Shown: positions 11,360-39,346, counted from the first letter of the stretch. The stretch: DNA of 64,000 bases from Escherichia coli (GCF_050320075.1 NZ_CP190018.1), one strand, 5' to 3'. A program made the numbers and translations. Notes: a model not told the origin generated them from the letters alone.

Positions 11360-12813
<1,454 letters not shown>

Positions 12814-12823
12814 GGATGCGACT

Positions 12824-13468
12824 ATGATGCAACCATCAATCAAACCTGCTGACGAGCATTCAGCTGGCGATATCATTGCGCGCATCGGCAGCCTGACGCG
12901 TATGCTGCGCGACAGTTTGCGGGAGCTGGGGCTGGATCAGGCCATTGCCGAAGCGGCGGAAGCCATCCCCGATGCGCGCGATCGTTTGTACTATGTTGTG
13001 CAGATGACCGCCCAGGCTGCGGAGCGGGCGCTGAACAGTGTTGAGGCGTCACAACCGCATCAGGATCAAATGGAGAAATCAGCAAAAGCGTTAACCCAAC
13101 GTTGGGATGACTGGTTTGCCGATCCGATTGACCTTGCCGACGCCCGAGAACTGGTAACAGATACGCGGCAATTTCTGGCAGATGTCCCCGCGCATACCAG
13201 CTTTACTAACGCGCAGCTGCTGGAAATCATGATGGCGCAGGATTTTCAGGATCTCACCGGACAGGTCATTAAGCGGATGATGGATGTCATTCAGGAGATC
13301 GAACGTCAGTTGCTGATGGTGCTGTTGGAAAACATCCCCGAACAGGAGTCGCGTCCAAAACGTGAAAACCAGAGTTTGCTTAATGGACCTCAGGTCGATA
13401 CCAGCAAAGCCGGTGTGGTAGCCAGTCAGGATCAGGTGGACGATTTGTTGGATAGTCTTGGATTTTGA
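12824..13468 (+). CDS. cheZ: CheY-phosphate phosphatase CheZ
   Basis: 214 aa from [18 protein letters not shown]...; ORF-track start at 12794 is an upstream extension. Confidence 0.95.
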
Positions 13469-13474
13469 TTTGTA

Positions 13475-13540
13475 TTGCCTGATGTGGCGTGACTACGTCA
13501 TATCAGGCGGTCGTATAACGCGATGACGCCGCATCCGACA
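13475..13540. repeat. REP (repetitive extragenic palindrome) elements downstream of cheZ
   Basis: GCCTGATGTGGCG...CGTCATATCAGGCGG palindrome followed by GCCGCATCCGACA REP-type motif. Confidence 0.6.
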
Positions 13541-13669
13541 AACGCATACTATGCTTGATGTGTGGCAGTAAAAGCCCTAAATCCCGCCTGTTTTGCCCCT
13601 TACTCAAACCATTGAACGCTTTGCGCTCTGGCATCATTTACGCTTAATACTCTTTCCAGGATTGGCGAC

Positions 13670-14818
13670 GTGTCTGACGAGAGCGACGACAAAACAGAAG
13701 CCCCCACACCTCACCGACTAGAAAAAGCGCGGGAAGAGGGGCAAATCCCGCGTTCCCGTGAACTGACTTCACTGCTGATTTTGTTAGTGGGCGTTAGTGT
13801 TATCTGGTTTGGCGGTGTGTCGCTGGCCCGTCGATTGTCGGGCATGCTCTCCGCTGGGCTGCATTTTGATCACAGTATTATCAATGACCCGAATCTGATC
13901 CTCGGGCAAATTATTCTGCTGATCAGAGAAGCCATGCTGGCGCTGCTGCCGCTGATTAGCGGCGTGGTGCTGGTGGCGCTCATTTCTCCGGTCATGCTGG
14001 GAGGGCTGGTATTTAGCGGAAAATCCTTGCAGCCGAAGTTTTCCAAACTCAACCCGCTACCGGGCATTAAACGGATATTCTCGGCTCAGACTGGCGCGGA
14101 GTTGCTTAAGGCAATTTTGAAAACCATCCTGGTTGGCAGCGTGACGGGATTTTTTCTCTGGCATCACTGGCCGCAGATGATGCGCTTAATGGCCGAGTCT
14201 CCGATTACCGCCATGGGTAATGCGATGGATCTGGTAGGGCTATGCGCGCTGCTGGTGGTACTTGGTGTTATTCCGATGGTGGGATTTGACGTCTTTTTCC
14301 AAATCTTCAGCCACCTGAAAAAGCTGCGAATGTCGCGGCAGGATATTCGTGATGAGTTCAAACAAAGCGAAGGCGACCCCCAAGTTAAAGGGCGGATCCG
14401 TCAGATGCAGCGAGCGGCCGCACGGCGTCGGATGATGGCCGATGTGCCGAAAGCGGACGTTATCGTCAATAACCCAACTCACTACTCAGTGGCTTTGCAG
14501 TACGACGAAAACAAAATGAGTGCGCCAAAAGTCGTTGCCAAGGGCGCGGGGCTGGTGGCATTACGCATTCGTGAAATTGGCGCTGAAAATAACGTCCCTA
14601 CGCTTGAAGCGCCGCCGCTGGCGCGAGCGCTGTATCGACATGCGGAGATCGGTCAACAAATCCCGGGTCAACTGTACGCCGCGGTGGCGGAAGTGCTGGC
14701 CTGGGTCTGGCAACTGAAACGCTGGCGTCTGGCTGGTGGACAGCGCCCTGTACAACCTACTCATCTTCCGGTGCCGGAAGCCCTGGATTTTATTAACGAG
14801 AAACCGACCCATGAGTAA
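13670..14818 (+). CDS. flhB: Flagellar export apparatus protein FlhB (GTG start)
   Basis: 382 aa MSDESDDKTEAPTPHRLEKAREEGQIP...; NPTH autocleavage motif present. Confidence 0.95.
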   Translation: MSDESDDKTEAPTPHRLEKAREEGQIPRSRELTSLLILLVGVSVIWFGGVSLARRLSGMLSAGLHFDHSIINDPNLILGQIILLIREAMLALLPLISGVVLVALISPVMLGGLVFSGKSLQPKFSKLNPLPGIKRIFSAQTGAELLKAILKTILVGSVTGFFLWHHWPQMMRLMAESPITAMGNAMDLVGLCALLVVLGVIPMVGFDVFFQIFSHLKKLRMSRQDIRDEFKQSEGDPQVKGRIRQMQRAAARRRMMADVPKADVIVNNPTHYSVALQYDENKMSAPKVVAKGAGLVALRIREIGAENNVPTLEAPPLARALYRHAEIGQQIPGQLYAAVAEVLAWVWQLKRWRLAGGQRPVQPTHLPVPEALDFINEKPTHE

Positions 14819-27130: not shown

Positions 27131-27189
27131 TCAAGGTCTAAATGCACTACATGGGCACCTAAACATATACATGTGATGTTGAGGTGTTA

Positions 27190-27210
27190 GAAAGGGGGCT
27201 GTTCAGCCCC
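27190..27210 (-). terminator. Rho-independent terminator for the 306-aa leftward gene
   Basis: On minus strand GGGGCTGAACAGCCCC hairpin followed by CTTTCT, immediately after the stop at 27219. Confidence 0.7.
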
Positions 27211-27218
27211 TGATAGAC

Positions 27219-28139
27219 TTAGTAATTATCCCTGACAACTTCATCATATCTTTCAATGAAGGTTAGTTGTTTATTACTTCCATTATAACTATCAACCCAT
27301 TTGTCTACAGCTTCATCGAATAGAAATAAAAAATCCGTATAATTTATATACACTACATTATCATAATATTGGGTTGGGTGACCTCTTTTACATACAGCAA
27401 TACTAAGACGTCTTTCTTTACCCTGAGTAACTTTGTGTGAATTAAGATTAGTCATGTGAAGCAATGAGTTCCTTAATTCATATAATTCGTCGGAAGTTAC
27501 TCCAAGTTTTTGTATATCTGAGTATGTATCTAACCAATTTTGAAAGACTCTTCTTTTGTTTCCAAACTCAATATAAGCTATAGTATCAATAAATGACATT
27601 AATAGCTTGAAGCTTGACAAGTAATGTTTTTTGTTAAACAGAAGCTTTATTGGTTCCATATGGTCATCATTAAGAAGTTCCTTAATGTGAAAACCATCAT
27701 CTTTCATATACTTATCAAGATAGTCTGGCAAGTCTTTTACACCTTCAATGTGATAGTTAGGTGTGTGCTTATTCCTTAATTGCTCTGACATTGATAACTG
27801 AATATCATATTGTAATTTGCCTTTAACAACGGGGGTGACTATAGCTAAAGGGTTTTCAGGTGCATTTTGAGCTTCTAATGCTAATTCAAACGGAGCAAAA
27901 GGATTACCAATCCGCAAATTTGCATTATATCTTTCAAGTGTCAATTTGTCATTTTCTAAAACAGAAGGGTGTATCCCATAAAATAAACGACAAGAAGCTA
28001 AGTCAATCTCCAAATTCCGCTTTAAAAAATCTAATTTTTGCGCATCATCGCCATCATGTTCGTGAGGTACTATTCCGGCATGTGTGATATGAACTCCATC
28101 AGGACTAAAGCAAAATATGTTGTAGATAATCTCTTTCAT
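27219..28139 (-). CDS. Hypothetical 306-aa protein, AT-rich, counter-oriented accessory gene in the element; has one R-x4-H (RNSLLH) motif
   Basis: Uninterrupted ORF with ATG start, own terminator, transcribed opposite to the rest of the element; no family recognised by eye. Confidence 0.6.
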   Translation of the reverse strand: MKEIIYNIFCFSPDGVHITHAGIVPHEHDGDDAQKLDFLKRNLEIDLASCRLFYGIHPSVLENDKLTLERYNANLRIGNPFAPFELALEAQNAPENPLAIVTPVVKGKLQYDIQLSMSEQLRNKHTPNYHIEGVKDLPDYLDKYMKDDGFHIKELLNDDHMEPIKLLFNKKHYLSSFKLLMSFIDTIAYIEFGNKRRVFQNWLDTYSDIQKLGVTSDELYELRNSLLHMTNLNSHKVTQGKERRLSIAVCKRGHPTQYYDNVVYINYTDFLFLFDEAVDKWVDSYNGSNKQLTFIERYDEVVRDNY

Positions 28140-28400
28140 ACCATTCTAACCTTCAGTGAAAATAAAGTTTTAACTATCATTAGATTATGAACAATCACAA
28201 TTGGCCTGTAAATAACAGGGCATAAACAGGTTCGTTTAGCTTGATTTTATCACTATAACTGTCTGATTTAACGGTAACTCACCAAGTATACACACAGTAA
28301 TTACACAATCCTGTTATTATGTAACTTATTGAAATATATAAATAATTTTTACATTCTTTGTTTGGGGTAAGCTGTGTAATGTTAGTCGTCCCTCTCCAGA

Positions 28401-28414
28401 CACTATATATAGTG
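28401..28414. promoter_or_regulatory. Perfect 14-bp palindrome CACTATATATAGTG in the 1.1 kb ORF-free spacer
   Basis: Read directly; embedded in a run of TATATA-containing repeats. Confidence 0.4.
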
Positions 28415-29102
28415 CTATATACAGGACTATATAACGATATATAGATGTTTGGTCACATGGTATAACTATCAAACCACTTAACGATTTCCTACGTGAAAGT
28501 TAGAAAGTGATAGTTATAGTTACCTTGTCAAATCTTCGTAGTCCCTTCTTAAAAAATCGTGAAAGGTAATCTTGTTATCTATACAGAATCTACGTAGATG
28601 CTTCTTAGTGCGCAAAACAGCTATTATGTTAAAAACGCACTGTATACGTATCAGTACTGATTTATAAGGGTTTTGTGTATTGGCTGATAAGAGGCTATAC
28701 AGCACCTTGAGAGCATGTCTTCTAAGTCATTGACATATAAGGTCACAGAAGTTTGTAGCTGTTACAGAGAAAACTGGATAGGACTTCACAGAACTATAAA
28801 ATGTTACAGCTATTGATAGGTGAAATCTTCTTGATAGATGCTTTGAAGTGTGGTGAAGGCTTTTTGAGGTGGGGCTAAACAGATATCATGAAGAAAGTCA
28901 ATAGTTGATTCGGTTTATCGAATAAACCTCATAGATATTTTAAAATTCTGCAAAGGGGGTCACATAGCTGGTGTGACGGGTACTTAGCAGCTACAGACAT
29001 CTATCAGATATTTTTGAAGATTTTTAGAAGGGGAATTTGAAGAGGGGCTACTACGATTTTATAAAAATTTTCAGATTCTGAAAAGTTACTGTACAGAATA
29101 TG

Positions 29103-29127
29103 TACAGATATCTTTAAAGTATCTGTA
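29103..29127. promoter_or_regulatory. Inverted repeat TACAGATA-N9-TATCTGTA (candidate operator) upstream of the MTase gene
   Basis: Read directly; adjacent direct repeats GTACAGA(A/T)AT and GATATCC x2. Confidence 0.4.
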
Positions 29128-29249
29128 AAAACTTTTAAGATAAAAGATAGATATCCCAGAAAGGATATCCGTTTAGAAAACCTATTAAGTATCTCTTAAA
29201 AGAGAGTAAACCTTGTCAAGAGTGATTGCAATAAAAATTTTTATTTCTT

Positions 29250-29912
29250 ATGTCAATTGAGTGTATTTTAATCGGGAAACATCATGGGGGTTCTGATTAC
29301 TGGAGAACTCCATTTTTGTTATTTAAGAACTTACACCGTGAATTTATTTTCAGTCTGGATGGTGCTGCAACTAAGCACGATACGTTATTACCCCGCTTTA
29401 CGGATGATATTCACAATCAGTCATGGGATGGTGAACGGGTATTCTGTAACCCACCATACAGCGACACTAAAACATTCCTCGTAAAAGCGTCTGAGGCAGA
29501 TTTATCGGTATTCCTGATACCGTACCGACCCCAAACCATATACTGGCTTAAGCACATCTTCACAAACCCGCTTTGCCATGAAATCCGTATTCTTCATCGT
29601 GCAGTTAAATACCTTCCACCAGCAGGGCATAACAGGCTTACTATTAGGTCGCCGTTTCCAAGTGCAGTCGTTGTTTTTAAAAAAGAACCACGCAGGCATG
29701 AAATTACGCAGATGGTTTGCTGTGCTGATACATTGCTACCGTTAACCATCATTAACAGAGGAGGCTTGAGAGGAAGGCCCACCATTTACCCACCTGAGAC
29801 GCTCGACAGCTTCATAAAACTATACAGGCAAGGCAAACCCATTAAGTGCATTGCAGATGCTCTCAGAATGCCTCTGAGCACGTCATACAGGATTGCTCAA
29901 AGGTTGAGCTAG
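29250..29912 (+). CDS. Phage-type DNA N6-adenine methyltransferase (Dam family) with C-terminal HTH-like tail
   Basis: SDYWRTPF...FSLDGAA...FCNPPY motifs typical of phage Dam MTases; C-terminal GRP...IADALRMPLSTSYRIAQRL resembles an HTH. Confidence 0.75.
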   Translation: MSIECILIGKHHGGSDYWRTPFLLFKNLHREFIFSLDGAATKHDTLLPRFTDDIHNQSWDGERVFCNPPYSDTKTFLVKASEADLSVFLIPYRPQTIYWLKHIFTNPLCHEIRILHRAVKYLPPAGHNRLTIRSPFPSAVVVFKKEPRRHEITQMVCCADTLLPLTIINRGGLRGRPTIYPPETLDSFIKLYRQGKPIKCIADALRMPLSTSYRIAQRLS

Positions 29913-30052
29913 AATTCTCATAAATATGGTCATTTACAAGACAGGTGATTTAGATATTAAGAGGTATCCCTGTGAACAATAAATGACCAATCAGTAATTA
30001 TCCTGTGAAATAATTGTTGCAATTTATAATCACACATGGTATAGTTTCATAG

Positions 30053-30197
30053 TGGACTGATAAAAAAGTTCATGTCTTGAAGTGGTAACACTTGGGGAGG
30101 TGTCAGATGATTGACGTATATTAACCTCTCATTCATGGTAATACCTCAGCGTTTTAATCATCGTACTGTTTCAGGCATGGACTTCTTTATCAGTCCA
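30053..30197. promoter_or_regulatory. 145-bp segment bracketed by a perfect 12-bp inverted repeat (TGGACTGATAAA / TTTATCAGTCCA) upstream of the initiator gene
   Basis: Read directly at 30053-30064 and 30186-30197. Confidence 0.4.
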
Positions 30198-30276
30198 TCA
30201 ATCCCCCAGATATTTTAATCACACAGGCTAATCGGTTTTATCCGGTTGGCCTTTTCACGTATGAGGTAATTTATGA

Positions 30277-31245
30277 ATGAAAAAAGAAACTAATGCTTTT
30301 ATTATGGTAGATAAACGAGTTGCACAATTCCCTAAAACATTAAAGCCAATTGACCGCTTGGTATATTTCACTATGCTGGATGGTGCTGATTATTACGAAT
30401 CTAAGTTCGGGAGATACGCACCAAGTATTGACTATTTGATGGTTATGTCTGGTGCTACACGTAATACAGTTATTGATTCACTTAAGAGACTTGAGTCACA
30501 CAGACTTATCGAAAAGACCAATGTAAAGGGTCAGCAAAGTATTTTTAAAGTATTCACGTTGGATGAGCGTCCAGAGGTCTTATCAGAACCTACCCTTGAT
30601 GAGCGTCGTAGAGCTAAATTATCAGGTCAACCAGAATCTGACAGTAACCCAACCAAAAATTGGTTACCTACCCAACCAGAATTTGGTTACCTACCTAACC
30701 AGAATTTGGTTACATGTAATACTGAATATAAAGACAAAAATATAAATACTGAAGAAGAAAGACTAAAAGGGAACTTTGAAGAAGAATCTCTTAAGAAGGG
30801 AGCTTCGCTCTGTGATTCACATGAATGTGATATTAAAGAAGATGACTTTCTTTCTTTGGATGAATTAAATGATTTTCTCTCTATGAATGAATCTGGCCTT
30901 GATAGTGAAGCTACTAAAGAGGCTGTTAAAAAGGAAGATAAAATCTCTGATGTGAATATCGATAGTGACCATAAAAACACACAGTGCCCCGCCACTGATG
31001 ATGAGATGGACCCCTTCGATGATTACCTTGATGAAGAGTCAGAGCGTGAAAAAGCCATTAAGAGGGTAGAGAAGAAAAAGAGATTCGAGCTTGCAAGACA
31101 AAAGAACAAAGTATCGGGTTTAGACCCATTCGATGACAGTGACGATGATGACTTTTCTTTCACACCAAGAAAGAAACAAACTCAGGATGACAAGAAGCAA
31201 AAAATTAAACCGAAGATGTATTTTGCTGGTGGAGGTATGCGCTAA
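30277..31245 (+). CDS. Putative replication initiator / replisome organiser (N-terminal winged-helix-like domain, acidic C-terminal tail)
   Basis: N-terminus resembles phage initiator DNA-binding domains; tandem iterons inside the ORF; highly acidic low-complexity C-terminal half. Confidence 0.55.
   Translation: MKKETNAFIMVDKRVAQFPKTLKPIDRLVYFTMLDGADYYESKFGRYAPSIDYLMVMSGATRNTVIDSLKRLESHRLIEKTNVKGQQSIFKVFTLDERPEVLSEPTLDERRRAKLSGQPESDSNPTKNWLPTQPEFGYLPNQNLVTCNTEYKDKNINTEEERLKGNFEEESLKKGASLCDSHECDIKEDDFLSLDELNDFLSMNESGLDSEATKEAVKKEDKISDVNIDSDHKNTQCPATDDEMDPFDDYLDEESEREKAIKRVEKKKRFELARQKNKVSGLDPFDDSDDDDFSFTPRKKQTQDDKKQKIKPKMYFAGGGMR
30641..30714. repeat. Tandem 23-bp direct repeats (iterons) inside the initiator ORF: TTGGTTACCTACC(C/T)AACCAGAAT
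   Basis: Two full units at 30660-30682 and 30683-30705 (1 mismatch) plus flanking partial units. Confidence 0.8.
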
Positions 31246-31541
31246 TGAAAGAATATCACGGTGAAAAGAGATACAAAGATTACCTGTTAAAGCGTTATAG
31301 CATTTCTCGTGAAGGCCACTTAATGAAGGATACTCACGGGGAAGTTTACCGGATTAGACCGAAGAAAGAAGGGAGGGATTATTTCTTTTACGATGGTGTG
31401 ACAGATTTAAAGATTGATGCTTTGAAGTTTGCGGCGCTGTATCATTATGATATCTGGGACTCAGTCCACCAGCTACGATTAAAAGACGGTGACCCCGGTA
31501 ATCTGAGGGCCACCAATATTATCAAGGGAAAGTGCCGGTAA
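31245..31541 (+). CDS. Small HNH_3/NUMOD4-like protein (98 aa), catalytic His not evident
   Basis: YSISREGHLMKDTHGEVYRIRPKKEGRDYFFYDG...LKDGDPGNLRATN resembles NUMOD4/HNH_3 layout; overlaps initiator stop. Confidence 0.45.
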   Translation: MKEYHGEKRYKDYLLKRYSISREGHLMKDTHGEVYRIRPKKEGRDYFFYDGVTDLKIDALKFAALYHYDIWDSVHQLRLKDGDPGNLRATNIIKGKCR

Positions 31542-31864
31542 GTCCACCAGCTATTTATTTATTGAAATCTCTATCTCAACACGAAGAAGTTTAAGTCGAA
31601 TTGTAAGCTTTGTCTTTTTTGTAATGACTCGATTCATAACGCAAAACACCAATAGCACAATAAATACCGCAAAGCCCAACGAGCTAAAACGATGAGATTC
31701 AATAATTGCTGTGAAAAAATCATGCATTAATTTTCCTTTTGCGAAAGGAAACAGCACCTGTATCAGCCCCTATAACCATAATATCATGTAAATGAGATGT
31801 TGACAATATGTTAAATAAATGTTATGATTGTAGTATGAGTAAGAGATTTAAGGAGATTTTTACA

Positions 31865-32155
31865 ATGACTCACACAGTTACGCGCCTTTTGCCAGAGGCA
31901 TTTGAACGACTGGCAGCAATCAAAGCCAAATATCCCGATATGAAGCACACAGCGCTTGTTGGAGAGCTTTTAAAAGAGTCGGTAACCCTGACCCCTTTCG
32001 ATAACGTTAAGGGCGTTGCAGAGGGTTCTAAGGCCATCAGAATCACAACGGACCAACTGGAACTACTCAAAGCACAGTCCGCAGTAGCAGGTTGCTCAAT
32101 GATTCAGGTGTTAAGCGCAAAGGTCCATCAATTAGCGGATAGGCTGGGGGTTTAA
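31865..32155 (+). CDS. Hypothetical small protein (96 aa)
   Basis: AAGGAG RBS 8 nt upstream of ATG at 31865; ORF-track start at 31808 is probably an extension; stop overlaps next gene (TAATG). Confidence 0.5.
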   Translation: MTHTVTRLLPEAFERLAAIKAKYPDMKHTALVGELLKESVTLTPFDNVKGVAEGSKAIRITTDQLELLKAQSAVAGCSMIQVLSAKVHQLADRLGV

Positions 32156-32580
32156 TGCTATGCACATTTGATTATCATGCGTTTTATCGCCATAGAGGCC
32201 ACCTTGTCCGTGAGAATAGCGGAACATGGAAAGATTTAACTCGTAATGCTGAACCCTTCACACACCAGCAATTAAAATCCCGCTTCTCCAGATGGAAGAA
32301 TGCACCAGCAGATACTGGTGATTTTGAGATTATCCATACCTTCGATTATGCCTCAGAAGATGACCTTCACGATGCAATTAAGCTGATTGAAGACTTCAAT
32401 ACCTCAGAAGATGTGGATGGTGACAAATATAAATCCCGTGGTAACCGCTATAACCGTGATGATATCACTCAGGCCATAAATGCTGGTCAATCTCAGCGAT
32501 ACATTACAGAAAAATATGGTATTTCACGGAGACAGTATTTCTACGTTAAATCATTGATTAATAAAGACAATTCAAAATAA
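32155..32580 (+). CDS. Hypothetical protein (141 aa) with C-terminal HTH-like segment
   Basis: Translationally coupled to upstream gene; C-terminus ...QSQRYITEKYGISRRQYFYVK resembles a Hin/resolvase-type HTH. Confidence 0.5.
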   Translation: MLCTFDYHAFYRHRGHLVRENSGTWKDLTRNAEPFTHQQLKSRFSRWKNAPADTGDFEIIHTFDYASEDDLHDAIKLIEDFNTSEDVDGDKYKSRGNRYNRDDITQAINAGQSQRYITEKYGISRRQYFYVKSLINKDNSK

Positions 32581-32741
32581 CCATCTCAGTAACGGTAGAA
32601 TGCACTTTACAGGCAGAGTTGCACCTTAATTTGATAAATTACCTTACCAGCCAGTGCAACTCCCTCTGTAACCCGCATGATTACTGGTCTCAGAATGGCT
32701 ATTTTAAGAGGTCTGAGATGTGTTTTGTAGGAGATTTAAAA

Positions 32742-33065
32742 ATGAACAACTTCCCATTACAGATTTTCGTTGATAACGACACCGCTATGATGGTGCAAAG
32801 CTTCAGTGATGCAGGTATTAGCATTGATTTTGACAGGCTGTTAAAGCTAATGGCTGATAATGAAGAAAACGTCTCTGACTTTATTCACTCGGTGGAGTTT
32901 AACGAGCCTCGAATGATGTTACCAATTACAGACAGTAATATGAAAAGATTGGTTATTGAGCAAACGAACAAATACAGTATTTCCCCAGAGCAATTTTTGA
33001 AAGGTGCTGTGACAATCCTGTACAGCGATAATATTTTGGTTACGGATTCCGTGAGGGTTCACTAA
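32742..33065 (+). CDS. Hypothetical small protein (107 aa)
   Basis: GGAG-type RBS before ATG at 32742; ORF-track start at 32619 is probably an extension. Confidence 0.45.
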   Translation: MNNFPLQIFVDNDTAMMVQSFSDAGISIDFDRLLKLMADNEENVSDFIHSVEFNEPRMMLPITDSNMKRLVIEQTNKYSISPEQFLKGAVTILYSDNILVTDSVRVH

Positions 33066-33359
33066 TGGGCTTAATAATTGCTTGGACGTTGCTTGGCTTA
33101 TTTGTTGGTTGCTGGGTAGGCAGCACAGTAAATAGAAATTGATGTTACCAATCTGTTAAAAAGCTGTTGACAAATAACCTTAAGCATGAGATGATGGTAA
33201 TAGGGGAGAGCAACTCTCTCTTATTTTTCTTTCAAAATAATCCGATGGATGGATATTCTGAATTGGAAAGGTGCAATGCTTTTCGTCATGGCCTTTCAGT
33301 TTAGTCTGAGAGGCTATCTCAAAAAGTGCTTAATCATTCATTGAACCCTTTACAGCTTT

Positions 33360-33387
33360 GCCCTAACTCATGATTAGGGCTTTCTTT
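33360..33387 (+). terminator. Rho-independent terminator-like hairpin
   Basis: Stem GCCCTAA/TTAGGGC with 7-nt loop followed by TTTCTTT. Confidence 0.55.
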
Positions 33388-33456
33388 AAGAGTTTTTAAA
33401 CAGAGCTTTTAAAGAAAGTTTTTCCTGAAACTTCGTTAACGTTAAAGCAAACCTTC

Positions 33457-33520
33457 AAAGCCCTTCACAGATGAGGATGATTCCATGAATATCCGAATCA
33501 CCTATGTTTAGGGCTTTTTT
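33457..33520 (+). ncRNA. Long-loop hairpin with U-tract (candidate small RNA 3' end or attenuator)
   Basis: Outer stem AAAGCCCT/AGGGCTTT enclosing inner GGAT/ATCC stem, followed by T6. Confidence 0.3.
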
Positions 33521-33636
33521 CAGCTTTTAAAAAGCATACTTGGCAAACGCCTTTTAAGCCTCTTCTAAGTTCGAGGATGTCAGGTGTGCTTTTTAAAAAC
33601 TGAAACATAAATTATCTTAGAAGAGGAAAGGTATTA

Positions 33637-34341
33637 ATGGCTATCCGTGATGAAAATGAAATGATTATTGAAAACAAACCAAGTGCACTTGATATTCACG
33701 AATTAAGTTTGCGTGAATCTTTTGATAGAGCTTGGCGGGAATCACACGAAGTAAATAAAGGTCCATATATTCCACCAGAACCACTCGAGATTCCAAGAGT
33801 TGAAATTGATTTTTCTATGAACGAACGGTGTGAACTTGATTTGAAGTTGAAGCTACAACGCCGATATTTCCAAGCTATTAAAGACTCTCAAGAAGCAATG
33901 AGAAGTGTTTATGAGAAAATTCAGTCCAAGCTTGAAGACGAAATTGACGAAATGGCTATTTTGATGGAGCTTCAAACCAATCCTTATGCTTATTTCTCTC
34001 GACTAGACCGTGACGGTTGGGGGTATGACCCTGTAGAGATTGGTAAAGTGATTGCAGATTTACCAGAAGGTCAAAGGGTTATTCGTACGGAAAGGGCCAT
34101 CAGAGCGCCACATCAACTGTCTCTAATTGTTGCTGATAAATCACAAGCTGAGCTTGAAGAAATTGCCAAAGAGAAACTGATGAAAGCAAGAGAAAATGAG
34201 ATTAATTTGCTGAAATCAAGACTGGCTAAGCTGATTAGTGACCATCAAGCGCTGGCTAAGGAGTACCGTCAAGAGTTGGCACAGATTATCAGCTTCAATG
34301 ATTTTCTGAGTGTTCCACGAGAATTTAGCAAGGCTGTTTGA
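33637..34341 (+). CDS. Hypothetical protein (234 aa), charged coiled-coil-rich
   Basis: ORF with ATG and GAGG-type RBS; no family recognised. Confidence 0.55.
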   Translation: MAIRDENEMIIENKPSALDIHELSLRESFDRAWRESHEVNKGPYIPPEPLEIPRVEIDFSMNERCELDLKLKLQRRYFQAIKDSQEAMRSVYEKIQSKLEDEIDEMAILMELQTNPYAYFSRLDRDGWGYDPVEIGKVIADLPEGQRVIRTERAIRAPHQLSLIVADKSQAELEEIAKEKLMKARENEINLLKSRLAKLISDHQALAKEYRQELAQIISFNDFLSVPREFSKAV

Positions 34342-34364
34342 TTATGAATTAAAAGAGGTGATTA

Positions 34365-34583
34365 ATGTATGAAGACCGTTTGGAAACTATCAAGGCAGTT
34401 TGTGAAAAACTTAAAAACCAACCACGTAAACCAAAAACGGTAAAGAGTAAGCATCAGCCTGTCACCTCAAACAGCAAAATAAAGATTCGCAAAATTCCTT
34501 CGTGGTGCATTGACCGTATTCCGGTTGGTTCAAGAATTATTCGTGAAGATGGTGATTATCATTGGGTATCAGTTGTTGGTTAG
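34365..34583 (+). CDS. Hypothetical small basic protein (72 aa)
   Basis: RBS GAGGTG before ATG; gene-dense context. Confidence 0.45.
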   Translation: MYEDRLETIKAVCEKLKNQPRKPKTVKSKHQPVTSNSKIKIRKIPSWCIDRIPVGSRIIREDGDYHWVSVVG

Positions 34584-34671
34584 TTAGTAAAAATCTACGG
34601 GAGAGATTATCGAGTGATATCGGTAGCTCTCCCTTTTTCGTATATGAACACTTAAGAGGTGAAAAATATGA

Positions 34672-36804
34672 ATGAGCAAATTCACAGTTGATAGTTTTAT
34701 CGTTGAATTAAGCTTCAATGAAAACATTATTAAGGGCTTGCAAAGAGTTGAAAAGGCAGCTTTGCAGTCAGCACAAAGAATTGAAAAGAACCTAAATAAA
34801 GGTTTCAGGATTAATACAAAGCAGCTTGATAGTAATTTAACGGCTTCTTTAGGGCAGCTTGAAAGGAAGTTTAATAAGGCCTTTGACAAGATTGAACAGA
34901 GAGCAAGAAATACTAAAGCTTTCCAGTTTACCACCAGATTTAATGACACTGTTAATCCTCCAAAACAACCGAGACAGCCACGAATTAGCGGCAACAGAGC
35001 AATCACAGCAGCTTACTCAGCGAATATGAGCAAGCTAAAAGGCTTTGACCCTATTTTGCAGAAATACATCAAATCTCAGTTTTACGGGCTATCTGCTAAA
35101 GCCGGTTCAATGGATTCTTCAAAATTCAATGAGAAGTTAGCTCAGTTAAACGCTTCAGTCAGAGAAGCAATTGCTAAAGCCAGAGGTCATACATCCACCA
35201 GCATTAATGGTGACAGAGCAGCTAATAGTCTTGATAACCTGTCTTCAGCAGCAGTTAAAACAGCAGGTGCATTTATCTCAATGCAGGCTGTATTAGCCAG
35301 TTATCAGAAGATTATGGAAATTGGTTTACAGCGTGCAAGTGCTGAACGTTCAATTGATTTCGTATTTGATAAAGATGCAGGTCAAGTAAAAGAGTTCACA
35401 AAGTCATTAGCTCAAACAACGGGTTTAGATATCGCTGAACTGCAATCACAGTTTGCTGGTTTTGGTGCTTCAGCTAAAGAGTCTATGGGCATTCAAGGTT
35501 CTGAAGAACTTTTTAAAAATATGATTGGCTATGCTCGTCTGATGGGGAGAAGTGAAGAAGAGATTAAGCGAGCACTGACAGCATTATCACAGATGGCTGG
35601 TAAGGGTCAGGTTATGGCTGAAGAGCTTAAGGGGCAATTAGCTGAAGCTGTTCCTGGTATGGTTCAGGTATTCGCTAAAGCAACCGGAAGGAATGAACAA
35701 GAGCTATTTGATGCCATGAAGAAGGGGGCTTTAAAATCTGCCGATACTCTTCAGAAGGTCACTCAGGAACTGAATAAACAAATCACCGCTAAAGGTGGCT
35801 GGAAAGCTATTTCAGAAAGTACACAGGCACAACTAGGGAACCTGAAAAACTCTTGGAATACCACGCTTGATAGTATCTTCAGAGGTTCTGAAGATGGTCT
35901 GCAAGATTTTACAAGAAGCTTAACAACGCTTTTAAACGCTCTTGGTGGAAGTGGTAAAAGTCTTGGTGAATCTCTTGGTAGTCTCATGACTTCTATGTCA
36001 CATGGTGTCGATTCATTGACTGATATCAGCTACAGGGTAAGAGCATTCTTCGATGAGGTGACATTAGCTTACCGTTCACTAAATGACACTCAGAAAAAAA
36101 TTGTTGATGGTTTATCTGATGGGTTAATTGATGGTTTGAAGATGCTTGCCGTAGCTGTTACTGCTCAAAAGGCTGCAAATGTAGCTGGAGGCTTGTTAAA
36201 CCTTGCAAATGCTGTTACTTCATTCGGTGATGCTGTTAATAAAGCTAAAGCTGGCAAGGCTGGTTCTTCAGGTGGTGCGCTAAATAAAGTTGGTAGAGTT
36301 GTTCTTTATGCTGAGTTGGTGAACTTTGCTCTTGATAATTTAAACCCTGAAGCGGCTAAGAATCCGAACTTACACCAATCAGGTATTGGAACAGAGACAA
36401 ACTTCAACCCTGAATACAAAGGCGATTCATCTAAACCAAACCAAATTAATGATGGATGGGCTAAGATTGGTAGTTCTATCGCTGACTGGTTTAATGGTGC
36501 GGCTAATAAAATTGCTAACTTCCAAGACCCGATGAATAACTTTGTTAATAACACACAATCAACTCCACCAGCTATCACAGGTGACATGGTTAATAGCAAT
36601 GCTCAACTTGCTATGGCTGTATCAGAGTTAGGAAGAAAGGTAGACGCTTTAACAGTAGAAGCTAAGAAGCCTTTATCAGTTAATATCAAAGGTGAAGCAA
36701 TTGTTAGACCGGATGAACCAGCTTTCTTTACTTTCAATCAATCAGCTAATGACCAGTTCACGCAGGATATGCTCTTAAGTTCAAGCTATCCAGAGGAAGA
36801 ATGA
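34672..36804 (+). CDS. Tape-measure-domain-like protein (710 aa)
   Basis: Central segment ...MAEELKGQLAEAVPGMVQVFAKATGRNEQELFDAMKKGALKSADTLQKV... resembles the conserved phage tape-measure domain; Ala/Gly/Ser-rich low-complexity C-terminal part. Confidence 0.55.
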   Translation: MSKFTVDSFIVELSFNENIIKGLQRVEKAALQSAQRIEKNLNKGFRINTKQLDSNLTASLGQLERKFNKAFDKIEQRARNTKAFQFTTRFNDTVNPPKQPRQPRISGNRAITAAYSANMSKLKGFDPILQKYIKSQFYGLSAKAGSMDSSKFNEKLAQLNASVREAIAKARGHTSTSINGDRAANSLDNLSSAAVKTAGAFISMQAVLASYQKIMEIGLQRASAERSIDFVFDKDAGQVKEFTKSLAQTTGLDIAELQSQFAGFGASAKESMGIQGSEELFKNMIGYARLMGRSEEEIKRALTALSQMAGKGQVMAEELKGQLAEAVPGMVQVFAKATGRNEQELFDAMKKGALKSADTLQKVTQELNKQITAKGGWKAISESTQAQLGNLKNSWNTTLDSIFRGSEDGLQDFTRSLTTLLNALGGSGKSLGESLGSLMTSMSHGVDSLTDISYRVRAFFDEVTLAYRSLNDTQKKIVDGLSDGLIDGLKMLAVAVTAQKAANVAGGLLNLANAVTSFGDAVNKAKAGKAGSSGGALNKVGRVVLYAELVNFALDNLNPEAAKNPNLHQSGIGTETNFNPEYKGDSSKPNQINDGWAKIGSSIADWFNGAANKIANFQDPMNNFVNNTQSTPPAITGDMVNSNAQLAMAVSELGRKVDALTVEAKKPLSVNIKGEAIVRPDEPAFFTFNQSANDQFTQDMLLSSSYPEEE

Positions 36805-36967
36805 TTTCTTATATATCCGTGTGCTACGTGATTTCTTCTGAACAGATATACCCACTAAAAATTATTTTTTACGTAGCTCACGCTTAACAGAGAAAATACT
36901 TATATATCAAAGGCTTGGTTAAAAATGATTAAAATACACTAAGCCTTTGAAATCAAAGGAGAATTTA

Positions 36968-37741
36968 ATGATTTACTCTAATCAGATTCGTTACAGTGGT
37001 AAAGATGGCGTTTACTTTCATCTACAAGGCCAGCCAGATAATTTCTTGTCACTATCAGCTACTGAGAACATGGAATTTGACAGCCCTATGATGGTTACCA
37101 CTCAAAATATGCAATCAGGGCAGACTGTCACAGATAATGTAATGCGTTCACCCAGAACTATTTCAATCAGTGGTGTGGTTGTAGTTGGTGAATCCGGTAG
37201 TATCCTTATCTCAAGAGATAATAAGCTGGTGGAAAACTTCATAGACACTCTTGAAAACTGGCGTGACCAGAAGCAAATTATCTCAGTTGTCTGTAAAGAT
37301 GGTATTAAGATTGACGACTCAATTATTACAAACTTTAAAGCCTCTAAAGATGTTGGTATTGCCAATGGTCTTAGAATCCAATTAACTTTTCAGGAAATTA
37401 ACTTTAAAGCTATTGTGGGTCAGACTGATATCTCGGCTGCGACCGGAAGGACTTCTACCACAAGTGATGGTGGTGCTACCAGTAAAAAGAATACAGGGAA
37501 CACTACGACAAGCTTAGGTAACGGTATGTTGATGTGTCAGGAGCTATATAATCGCTCTACGAGTGAACTTACTAATGAGCAACTTCAAGCCCGTATCAAT
37601 TGTGGTAAAAATGTCAGAGTTAAGAACGGAAAAAGCACCTTCTCAGATGCCGCTAATGAGCAAGCTTCAAAGGTGCTTAATAATGCTGGTACAGGTAGTA
37701 CTTTGAAGAAGTATTCTGTTAATCCTAACAAGCGATACTGA
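36968..37741 (+). CDS. Hypothetical protein (257 aa), possible virion/tail-associated
   Basis: AAGGAG RBS before ATG at 36968 (ORF-track start 36947 is TTG); directly follows the tape-measure-like gene. Confidence 0.45.
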
Positions 37742-37755
37742 CGATAGAATCTCAA

Positions 37756-39279
37756 CTATATGATAACCTCATCAACATCTATTAAACCCCTCTCAGTGAC
37801 TTCAGAAAGCGACTGTATAGCCTCTGTAACGTTGTCTGAGGGGTTTTCTGTTATTGGTAAGGTGATTGCTTTACCGTTGTGAAAAGTTACTTTACAGCGA
37901 CGTTTAGCAGTATTTAAAACGACCTCTTTAACAGCACTTTTGATTATCAGTTGTGCTTCAATCCTTCCCGCCTTTGTAGTCAAGTCACAATCAGACAAAC
38001 AACCCACATCAATAGATTTAAGGCGTTGTGTCTCCTTCTCGATATCCGCATCAACTTGTGATAGCTCATTCTTTAGTTGTCTTAGTTTGCTGGTAATAGC
38101 GGACAAGTCTTCAATTTCAAGTGATAGCTGTACCAGCTTTTCAATATTGCTTGAGATGTGTTCACGGTGTAGCTTCAGTGTGTCTATGGTATTCGTCATA
38201 TCGCTATCAAATCGGTCAAGACGAGATAGCAGGGCAAGCAATGTACCATCGGTTTGCTTACGTGAAAGTCCTTTAGCACTACAACGGTTTTCATTACGAA
38301 GAGGACAACGATAAATCCCGTTTCTTGTATCGCTAAAGCCTGTGATAATCAAAGCATGACCACATTCAGAACAACGGATAACACCTTTGAAAAGATTCAC
38401 AGCCATTGGCTTATCTGAAGCAGGTTTTCTACCGTAACGAGCATATGATAGTTGTTGAACTTTGTAGAATGTTGTTTCATCTATAATTGCAGGATAATAA
38501 CCAGATATCTCCTCACAGCCTTTAGGTGTGAAGTAACCAATTACAGAGCGATTCTTCAAAAGGTCTTGCACTGAGGTTTGACCAAACTTACCTGCTTTGT
38601 ACTGGTTAAGCGTCTGGTGACCTTCAGCATTAAGAGTTCTGACAATCTCCCAGATAGACTTACCCTCTAACCGTAGCTGAAAGCACCTCTTCACAGTCTC
38701 CACTTTCTCAGGTATCACAGAGAAGCTTTTACGGTCATCATTAAGCTTAAGCCATGCAGGACAACGCCTAGAAATCTTGATACCAGCTTTAGCAGCTTCT
38801 TTCTTTGCATCCCATGCAGCTTGTATACGCTCAGCCTTACGTAATGATTCCTCATGCGCCCTTTGCATTATCAAAATGCTTTTAATCAGAGCTAACGGGT
38901 CTTTAAGAGATTCCCTTGTGTAATGTTCACCATCGGACAGGGTGACTACATCTACACCAGAGCGAAGAATGTTTCTGAGTAGCTCACTTGCTTGGTCTAC
39001 GTCCTGACGTGAGAGACGGTCTAAACTCTCGATTAGTAGTGTATCACCAGCTTTAACAAGCCCTTTCTCGATAGCGGTTAAAAAGTCACCTAAGCCACCT
39101 TTCAAGTGCTTACCAGTGAACCCGCTAACGCCTAAATCACGAAAAGTAAGGGATTCATCCAGATAGTACTCAGGATGAGCCTTAAGCCAATCAGTGACCA
39201 TCTTAGCCTGTCGTCTTAATGAGTCGCCTCTGGATTGCTTCTCAGATGAAAACCGGATGTAACTGATTGCACGTTTCAT
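37756..39279 (-). CDS. Large serine recombinase (integrase)
   Basis: 507 aa; N-terminal resolvase-type catalytic domain (YIRFSSEKQ with catalytic Ser), recombinase domain, Cys-rich zinc ribbon (CSECGH...YRCPLRNENRC), C-terminal coiled coil; adjacent to attR. Confidence 0.9.
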   Translation of the reverse strand: MKRAISYIRFSSEKQSRGDSLRRQAKMVTDWLKAHPEYYLDESLTFRDLGVSGFTGKHLKGGLGDFLTAIEKGLVKAGDTLLIESLDRLSRQDVDQASELLRNILRSGVDVVTLSDGEHYTRESLKDPLALIKSILIMQRAHEESLRKAERIQAAWDAKKEAAKAGIKISRRCPAWLKLNDDRKSFSVIPEKVETVKRCFQLRLEGKSIWEIVRTLNAEGHQTLNQYKAGKFGQTSVQDLLKNRSVIGYFTPKGCEEISGYYPAIIDETTFYKVQQLSYARYGRKPASDKPMAVNLFKGVIRCSECGHALIITGFSDTRNGIYRCPLRNENRCSAKGLSRKQTDGTLLALLSRLDRFDSDMTNTIDTLKLHREHISSNIEKLVQLSLEIEDLSAITSKLRQLKNELSQVDADIEKETQRLKSIDVGCLSDCDLTTKAGRIEAQLIIKSAVKEVVLNTAKRRCKVTFHNGKAITLPITENPSDNVTEAIQSLSEVTERGLIDVDEVII

Positions 39280-39346
39280 TGTTCACCTCACCAATAGCAG
39301 TTGGGCTTGTACCAACCCCTAGATTGTATCGCTTTAGATGGTGTAT

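Follow-up and report, generated by a model that had tools for sequence, protein, structure and literature searches.

Why should a small adenine methyltransferase that has no restriction partner, and that lies in a mobile island, carry a DNA-binding domain of the kind used by resolvases? This question is raised by a gene at positions 29250-29912 of a 64,000-nucleotide stretch of Escherichia coli DNA (GCF_050320075.1, NZ_CP190018.1), read on one strand, counted from its first letter and referred to below as the window. The gene lies in an island of ~12.2 kb inserted in yecE, and its product joins a catalytic core of the PF05869 (Dam) family to a tail resembling the DNA-binding domain of serine recombinases. 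We propose, with a probability of roughly 0.45, that the protein may be a site-tethered adenine methylase, in which the tail would anchor a core devoid of a recognition domain at specific sites, and in which binding near its own gene would limit its expression. The stretch is 100% identical to genome YZLc1-3, in which it is chromosomal and the product is annotated as WP_000020969.1, 'DNA N-6-adenine-methyltransferase'. The parts of the gene are as follows (HTH, helix-turn-helix; ORF, open reading frame).

29250-29912, plus strand: complete coding sequence of the methyltransferase-HTH fusion, 220 aa (ORF call; 5'-most ATG following a stop)
29292-29699, plus strand: catalytic domain, the minimal N6-adenine DNA methyltransferase core, residues ~15-150
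29292-29309, plus strand: D-Y-W-R-T-P motif, residues 15-20 (read in the sequence)
29448-29459, plus strand: N-P-P-Y catalytic motif IV, residues 67-70 (read in the sequence)
29700-29771, plus strand: conserved beta-hairpin 'CADTLLPLTIINRGG', residues 151-174, the joint of core and tail (model strands 153-157 and 164-169)
29772-29780, plus strand: G-R-P arm, residues 175-177 (aligned to 'KGVYKGRPLLY' of Sin/Bin3 2r0q and to HTH_7 positions 1-41)
29793-29906, plus strand: three-helix HTH, residues 182-219

The two signatures from which a methyltransferase had been predicted, DxWxTP and NPPY, were both present (D15-Y-W-R-T-P20 and N67-P-P-Y70), and the Pfam Dam profile search that had been proposed as a check placed the protein above the threshold of PF05869 (E=3.1e-14, 53.4 bits against a gathering threshold of 28.1, residues 15-84). 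The core also matched PHROG 111 'DNA methyltransferase' (2.4e-25, residues 15-151) and the orphan-methyltransferase model of PADLOC (oMTase, 1.3e-13). T20 and P21 were at least 90% conserved among 66 family members, as were N67, P68, P69 and the conserved acidic residue of the cofactor pocket, D37, in both an 18-sequence and the 66-sequence alignment. N67, P68 and P69 showed no variation across 119 E. coli alleles, and NPPY, D37 and the other family-invariant residues were intact in every member of the fusion clade and in all 119 full-length E. coli alleles. Judged from its motifs, the gene is an intact N6-adenine DNA methyltransferase of the PF05869 type, and their conservation suggests that the enzyme is active. 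The fold of the core resembles the catalytic domains of N6-adenine methyltransferases (PCIF1 in Foldseek, E=4e-4); a PDB sequence search with the whole protein gave no significant match, and neither sequence nor fold searches found a solved structure of the PF05869 family. A HMMER library search retrieved 2456 relatives, which are mostly 140-190 aa long and align only over residues ~15-150. Since most of these relatives end near residue 150, the PF05869 core appears to work without a separate recognition domain, and the tail appears to be an addition to it. The Hia5/Hin1523-type non-specific methylases were also considered as the family and were rejected, their FxGxG before DPPY at residue ~194 marking a different class, and M.EcoGIX and EcoGVI were set aside as plasmid-borne or unrelated leads.

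The C-terminal segment had been described in the original prediction as resembling a Hin/resolvase-type HTH, and this resemblance was borne out by profile and fold comparisons. The tail alone fell just short of Pfam PF02796 (HTH_7, resolvase HTH; E=2.8e-4, 21.4 bits against a gathering threshold of 23.8, residues 175-215), whereas HTH_7 was matched by six of eight fusion homologues (best E=2.3e-6), and a profile built from the tails of the family matched the DNA-binding domain of Sin/Bin3 (2r0q) at E=1.2e-6, in an alignment that takes in the GRP arm, and those of the gamma-delta (4e-4) and Tn3 (8e-4) resolvases. The tail also matched the Sin and Tn3 resolvase domains by fold. These matches point to a DNA-binding domain of the serine-recombinase type at residues ~173-220, an assignment that is solid at the family level and marginal for this protein alone. 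A minor-groove role for the G-R-P arm is suggested by the established structures of Hin and resolvases. AlphaFold2 gave a confident model of a single unit, with a predicted local distance difference test (pLDDT) score of 91.9 and a predicted template modelling (pTM) score of 0.81, in which the tail is made up of a beta-hairpin (153-169), a lower-confidence linker (171-180) and three helices (182-219).

We found that about seven clusters among the 2456 relatives share the fusion, being 36-63% identical and aligned through residue 219; they come from E. coli/Shigella, Pluralibacter gergoviae, Erwinia typographi, Franconibacter helveticus and Raoultella planticola, and have in common the tail motif CADTxLxL..RGGxRGRPTxY...LD..I.L...G....IA....P.ST..RI.QRL. 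Within this clade D160, L165 and G171 of the hairpin are invariant and G175 and R176 of the G-R-P arm are invariant or near-invariant, while 82% of the hairpin positions are invariant among the E. coli alleles. When this allele was compared with that of ECONIH2, the ratio of nonsynonymous to synonymous substitution rates (dN/dS) was 0.32 over residues 1-150, as against 0.058 over residues 151-220, and the HTH showed five synonymous changes and no nonsynonymous change. By this measure, constraint within the protein is strongest in the tail and exceeds that on the catalytic domain. Far from being non-conserved or disordered, an outcome that would have told against the original prediction, the tail is the best-conserved part and is ordered in the AlphaFold2 model. 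In tblastn searches against phages the catalytic part alone found matches and the fusion was seen in no phage, and megablast against plasmids and phages gave no match. A recent origin of the tail as a copy from the small resolvase that adjoins the fusion gene in a Pluralibacter-like genome (L013) was rejected, the tail being 26% identical to the DNA-binding domain of that resolvase (E=0.14).

It could be argued that the fusion is an artefact, created when a frameshift merged the separate genes of a methylase and a small HTH protein, or that the gene is a pseudogene in decay. Some database entries are indeed fragments, and in E. coli E166 (L015, 10970-11639) an extra G in the G-run of the linker shifts the HTH tail out of frame with the core, either because the gene is a pseudogene there, because the run is prone to slippage or through an error in sequencing. 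However, more than 100 E. coli alleles and the homologues in four other genera (36-63% identical) all keep a single frame of 220-226 aa, dN/dS is well under 1 in both parts, and the model folds as one unit. We regard an artefact as barely credible.

No match to a nuclease or a defence family was found in the flanking ORFs (Pfam, PHROG, PADLOC and NCBIfam), and the neighbouring gene of 306 aa matches no known family. As had been predicted, the methylase is an orphan, with no cognate restriction endonuclease gene adjacent to it. If the protein is site-tethered, the hairpin, the G-R-P arm and the HTH would together bind a specific site of ~12 bp in the fashion of a resolvase DNA-binding domain, the tail taking the place that the recognition domain has in M.TaqI and other gamma-class enzymes. 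The bound sites or the DNA beside them, and not the genome as a whole, would then be methylated, and binding in the control region of the gene itself would limit the expression of the enzyme.

The fusion can be compared with several known groups of proteins. It resembles the phage Dam proteins of PF05869/TIGR01712 (M.EcoT1Dam, M.EcoVT2Dam and HP1 Dam) in its small core, its D-x-W-x-T-P and NPPY motifs, its location on a phage or mobile element and its orphan status, and differs from them in the extra DNA-binding tail of ~70 residues (in about seven representative clusters) and in a diverged second half of the core. Unlike the small serine recombinases (Sin/Bin3, gamma-delta, Tn3 resolvase and Hin), it carries their DNA-binding domain on a methyltransferase and not on a recombinase catalytic domain. 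The gamma-class N6-adenine methyltransferases (M.TaqI, M.BseCI and Type I HsdM) are about 12-17% identical to the fusion and have a large recognition domain or an HsdS subunit, whereas the fusion has a 50-residue HTH in that position; in M.TaqI the recognition domain is C-terminal to the catalytic domain. Methyltransferases with a regulatory HTH are known from M.SsoII, M.Ecl18kI, M.EcoRII and M.MspI, which are C5-cytosine enzymes of restriction-modification systems with the HTH at the N-terminus, the C-terminal DNA-binding segment of CcrM is non-specific and is not an HTH_7 domain, and ParB-methylase fusions are also known. As in the M.SsoII group and CcrM, an extra DNA-binding part is attached to a methyltransferase here, a part that serves in those enzymes for autoregulation or substrate binding. 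We found no earlier account of a serine-recombinase DNA-binding domain joined to a PF05869 core. Small methylases of this family are widespread among phages, the domain also occurs in DIRS retrotransposons and, to our knowledge, the mode of DNA recognition by these methylases has not been established. A natural fusion of this kind would show how specificity can be added to a minimal methylase via a resolvase-type domain of 50 residues, and it would be a ready scaffold for the targeted writing of N6-methyladenine (m6A).

The context of the gene bears on what the core could methylate. The island and its main genes are as follows (GC, guanine-plus-cytosine).

27135-39346, no strand assigned: whole island of ~12.2 kb inserted in yecE (DUF72), 38.7% GC, GATC-free, flanked by the split halves of the yecE pseudogene
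27219-28139, minus strand: variable left-end cargo gene, 306 aa (no Pfam, PHROGs, PADLOC or NCBIfam match)
30277-31245, plus strand: putative replication initiator, 322 aa, with an N-terminal HTH, directly 3' of the methylase (PHROG 270/428/678, 1.7e-7 to 2.9e-6)
34672-36804, plus strand: tape measure protein, a relative of Felix O1 ORF67 (34-39% identity; Pfam TMP_3, 1.1e-18)
36947-37741, plus strand: Dit-like protein, homologue of Felix O1 ORF68 (70% amino-acid identity)
37756-39279, minus strand: large serine recombinase, 507 aa, the island integrase (Pfam Resolvase, Recombinase and Zn_ribbon_recom; PHROG 95 integrase, 1.9e-79)

The island contains no GATC, as compared with 43-51 expected and with 236 in the flanking chromosome, and none is found in phage Felix O1 (NC_005282, 86 kb; L010-L012), for which 283-303 would be expected. 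GATC is the sole 4-bp palindrome missing, and 6-bp sites at zero in Felix O1 are ATGCAT, CAGCTG, CCATGG, CTGCAG, GAATTC, GGTACC and GTGCAC. The GC content of the island (38.7%) is close to that of Felix O1 (39.0%), as compared with 51% in the flanks. Islands of the family are GATC-free with or without the methylase (0/39, 0/40, 0/42 and 3/41), and in the Pluralibacter-like genome the GATC-free stretch coincides with the extent of the island. Fusion homologues in other kinds of element carry 2-6 GATC sites inside the gene, which suggests that the present allele has long been shaped by the constraint acting on the island. A phage-encoded GATC-directed nuclease and Dam/MutH avoidance are both possible causes of the absence of GATC.

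These counts bear directly on the idea that the protein is a classical Dam-like methylase acting on GATC in the host chromosome, for example raising or restoring GATC methylation during infection. The family name would favor such a role, as would the characterised members of PF05869, which are phage-borne GATC methylases (M.EcoVT2Dam and a relative of M.EcoT1Dam); the fusion's own element has no GATC, so that a Dam-like enzyme would be without a target in cis. With GATC absent from both the island (12.2 kb) and Felix O1 (86 kb), with a Dam already present in E. coli and with the TIGR01712 threshold missed, we consider a host-directed Dam role very improbable, and the methylase is probably not an ordinary Dam (GATC) enzyme. 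Since neither the island nor its presumed helper offers a GATC substrate, and the host has its own Dam, the label 'Dam-type' is misleading for function here; of the earlier description as phage Dam-type, the family assignment held, and the implied GATC methylation is not supported.

The link to Felix O1 extends to the genes. ORF68 of Felix O1 is the gene directly after the tape measure gene (ORF67), and the Dit-like protein of the island is covered over at least 80% by 260 phage records, nearly all of them from Felix O1 relatives. The tube initiator of phage Bas63 is gp18, and near-identical structural modules have been reported (PMC12609058). From its position beside the tape measure and these near-identical modules, ORF68 is probably the Felix O1 counterpart of gp18. 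No Felix O1 counterpart was found for the island proteins other than the tape measure and Dit-like proteins, the methylase included. The island has features of satellite type, namely an integrase, a replication-initiator-like gene and only two structural genes (tape measure and Dit-like), both related to those of Felix O1, and Pfam and PHROG searches found no capsid, terminase or lysis genes in it. Because of its small size, its integrase and replication module, its two helper-like structural genes, its copies of helper noncoding DNA (described below) and the sequence avoidance that it shares with Felix O1, the island looks like an undescribed satellite of virulent Felix O1-like phages. This satellite context, although unproven, and the shared GATC avoidance raise the interest of the gene. 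A search of the IMG/VR viral contigs with the methylase protein found no relative, and our literature searches found nothing that links satellites with Felixounavirus or notes the absence of GATC. The island resembles the phage-inducible chromosomal island-like element (PLE) of Vibrio cholerae in being small, in encoding a replication initiator of its own besides a large serine recombinase, and in a dependence on virulent phage that is here suggested by sequence; it differs from PLE in its host, in having tail genes, in being GATC-free and in being known from sequence alone, and no sequence relationship between the two was shown.

In agreement with the earlier view, the gene lies in a mobile element; this is, however, not a generic prophage; it belongs to a family of serine-recombinase islands of ~11-12 kb. 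Of 5426 complete E. coli genomes, 500 (about 9%) carry parts of the island, as a mosaic family of 11-12 kb elements, and 142 carry the methylase gene, chromosomal in all. Other locations of the family are yciI/tonB in E. coli E166 (L015) and the Pluralibacter-like genome. In ECONIH2 the methylase is the first gene within the island end, and in four island copies it is the first rightward gene behind a conserved noncoding region. ECONIH2 and most other islands of the family lack the 306-aa gene, similarity to other islands starting at ~28322; the gene is variable cargo, no partner of the methylase, and possibly a defence gene. The island of EC98, at the same yecE site, has neither the methylase nor the 322-aa replication gene, and has in the methylase slot (L002, 3829-4353) a gene for an AP2/ERF-type DNA-binding protein on the opposite strand, together with an HNH endonuclease module. 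Since EC98 carries different genes there, the region between the conserved noncoding DNA and the tail genes appears to be a swap zone. In E166 the methylase is paired with a different downstream module, and it is accessory cargo that is not bound to one replication module. In the window, several small ORFs lie between the replication-initiator-like gene, whose product matches HTH_36 only weakly, and the tape measure gene.

The conserved noncoding region directly upstream of the methylase consists of the following features.

28322-29249, no strand assigned: conserved, ORF-free, AT-rich regulatory region of the island family, 33% GC (from alignments)
28934-29096, plus strand: segment like the Felix O1 gene 23/24 repeat array (70% identity over 171 nt to Felix O1 13289-13452, E=2e-8)
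29132-29189, plus strand: segment like Felix O1 gene 40/41, 61-118 nt upstream of the ATG (86% identity over 58 nt to Felix O1 21633-21578, E=1e-11)

The ORF-free DNA between the 306-aa gene and the methylase measures 1.1 kb. As compared with ECONIH2, its proximal ~750 bp are about 95% identical (by eye), the mean column identity over the whole ~1.1 kb is 87%, and a 3.1-kb region around the methylase is 88% identical at the DNA level; between island variants, the conservation of 28322-29249 exceeds that of the genes. In this region TACAG occurs 12 times (2.1 expected) and GATATC four times (0.4 expected), and the region may be a mimic of an origin or a packaging signal. A search of the island against Rfam found no RNA family. 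Part of the noncoding region is also kept in the EC98 island, which is without the methylase.

Short stretches of the region copy noncoding DNA of Felix O1. The homologue of 29132-29189 is the divergent intergenic region of Felix O1 genes 40 and 41, in the orientation towards gene 40, and an inverted repeat GATATCC-N6-GGATATC, which is common to Felix O1, lies inside this segment at 29150-29169. The second segment corresponds to part of a 1.6-kb noncoding region of Felix O1 (12306-13927 of NC_005282, L011), between genes 23 and 24, in which two transcription units converge and which is packed with repeats of the CTTGTTAG, CTGTTAAG and CTTAAAAG types; a discussion of this repeat region was not found in the genome paper, as far as it could be searched. 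Both matching noncoding regions separate transcription units of Felix O1 (PMC3185647). The block TCAGATATTTTTGAAGAT and similar blocks of the gene 23/24-like segment are identical in the Pluralibacter-like island, and a pair of AGATATTTT, 73 bp apart here and 99 bp apart in EC98, recurs in most of the islands examined, this sequence occurring three times in the Felix O1 gene 23/24 array. The T-tract-GA layout of the 18-mer TCAGATATTTTTGAAGAT recalls the Hin half-site, which we take as a lead and not as a test. Matches to this 18-mer in IMG/VR, 28 in number, were all unrelated chance matches. Because the control region immediately in front of the gene contains copies of short Felix O1 noncoding stretches, a site-tethered methylase would probably be switched on together with the island, and it would probably mark island DNA, and possibly helper DNA, at a motif other than GATC.

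The same arrangement allows the protein to be viewed chiefly as a regulator of transcription or replication of the island, or of a mimicked helper promoter, with a methylase domain that is secondary or inactive. Constraint on the protein is highest in the HTH, the gene stands in the position of a first regulator on the way from the control region to the replication gene, the DNA upstream of it shows homology to the promoter region of Felix O1 genes 40/41, it is separated from the replication gene by DNA with a second promoter-like site and a 25-nt inverted repeat, and the EC98 slot holds an AP2/ERF-type DNA-binding protein. In PLE, the repressor CapR acts on ICP1 in a comparable regulator role. 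However, NPPY, D37 and the family-invariant residues are kept in every clade member and in the 119 alleles, which favors catalysis, and the methylase is not linked to one replication module and is missing from most islands. We consider a chiefly regulatory role improbable.

With regard to the sites just mentioned, a promoter-like TTGCAA-17-TATAGT with a TG, followed by the 25-nt inverted repeat, was observed at 30017-30197, just 5' of the replication-initiator-like gene (30277). The arms of the repeat (30053-30077 and 30173-30197) are 88% complementary and 95 nt apart, and could form a structured leader or be paired operators.

Several observations weigh against a site-tethered, self-limiting methylase. 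No canonical sigma-70 promoter or Shine-Dalgarno sequence lies directly upstream of the gene: the 17 nucleotides 5' of the ATG are aaaaatttttatttctt, which contain no Shine-Dalgarno-like purine run and are consistent with the weak Shine-Dalgarno sequence noted in the original prediction, and farther upstream there is A/T-rich sequence only. No binding site could be assigned to the HTH, and no operator common to all copies was found. The repeat GATATCC-N6-GGATATC was rejected as an operator of the HTH, being absent from the Pluralibacter-like island despite a nearly identical recognition helix, and the AGATATTTT pair and its neighbouring blocks are kept in the methylase-free island and present in Felix O1. 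Since they are kept in the methylase-free island, the AGATATTTT pair and the 18-mer TCAGATATTTTTGAAGAT probably serve other factors, possibly of phage or host. Only about 28% of the islands carry the methylase (142 against ~500 genomes), and one copy, that of E166, is frameshifted in the linker; because it is absent from most islands and frameshifted in one copy, the methylase appears to be dispensable for the island. As for the core, the PF05869 alignment covers profile positions 9-83 of 169, that is, the first half alone, and the score with the NCBIfam equivalog TIGR01712 (phage_N6A_met) was 37.5 bits, far under the cutoff of 97.05. Because this cutoff was missed, the methylase is best described as a divergent PF05869 member that cannot be named as the equivalent of the characterised phage enzymes.

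An alternative is a plain anti-restriction orphan, which would methylate a short motif on all DNA of the cell so that the island survives restriction in its next host, the HTH being no more than a repressor of its own promoter, as in M.SsoII or M.EcoRII with their regulatory HTH regions. The methylase is an orphan carried by a mobile element, the PADLOC model for orphan methyltransferases recognises it, its characterised relatives are phage-borne GATC methylases (M.EcoVT2Dam and the M.EcoT1Dam relative), its accessory, dispensable distribution fits cargo, and palindromes lie 60-100 nt upstream of the ATG. On the other hand, a purely regulatory tail would not need to be fused via a rigid, conserved hairpin and a G-R-P arm. 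An autoregulating HTH is also at odds with the lack of an operator common to all copies. Moreover, the island avoids GATC wholly and phages of the Felix O1 type avoid many 6-bp sites, so that site avoidance is evidently the route taken by this lineage. A strongly constrained DNA-binding domain suits site-directed or self-regulated methylation better than blanket anti-restriction, and we regard the plain anti-restriction role as possible, if doubtful. We prefer the hypothesis that the enzyme is tethered by its tail to specific sites.

A bolder version of this hypothesis, which at present is a long shot, is that the protein could be a natural 'DamID-like' enzyme of a hitherto unrecognised, GATC-free family of satellites of virulent Felix O1-like phages, which would mark satellite or helper DNA epigenetically during hijacking. 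Such a mark could separate the phage-mimicking control or packaging region of the satellite from that of its helper, or could silence the mimicked helper promoter. If the island is indeed a satellite of Felix O1-type phages, it would be the first candidate satellite of these phages, and E. coli would have a case that resembles PLE. Phages of the Felix O1 type are used in Salmonella typing, phage biocontrol and therapy, and the island, parts of which occur in about 9% of complete E. coli genomes, could influence the outcome of phage therapy. It also offers a directly testable explanation for total GATC avoidance.

Finally, fusion genes were observed at the edges of mobile elements in other genera, beside a tRNA end in one case (L003) and at the left end of a prophage-like region in another (L014). 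In Franconibacter helveticus (L005, 7777-13718), a flagellin gene and a gene for an FljA-like phase-1 flagellin repressor (PF03614) are followed after 28 bp by a 46%-identical fusion, which is close to an IS1 and a serine recombinase of 564 aa; this pairing of a resolvase-HTH methylase with a cassette resembling those of flagellar phase variation is suggestive. Further fusion-carrying islands were found in Erwinia typographi (L007, 5099-10957) and in a locus whose fusion protein clusters with the Raoultella planticola sequence (L008, 5465-19166). Both have a tyrosine integrase of 550 aa, an integrase-like gene of 186-205 aa divergent from the methylase, and ~0.8 kb of noncoding DNA. The Erwinia contig stops just past the methylase, and the other locus continues with a DEAD-like protein of 485 aa and a weak major-capsid-E match; the latter looks like a different satellite-like element, with a normal GATC content.

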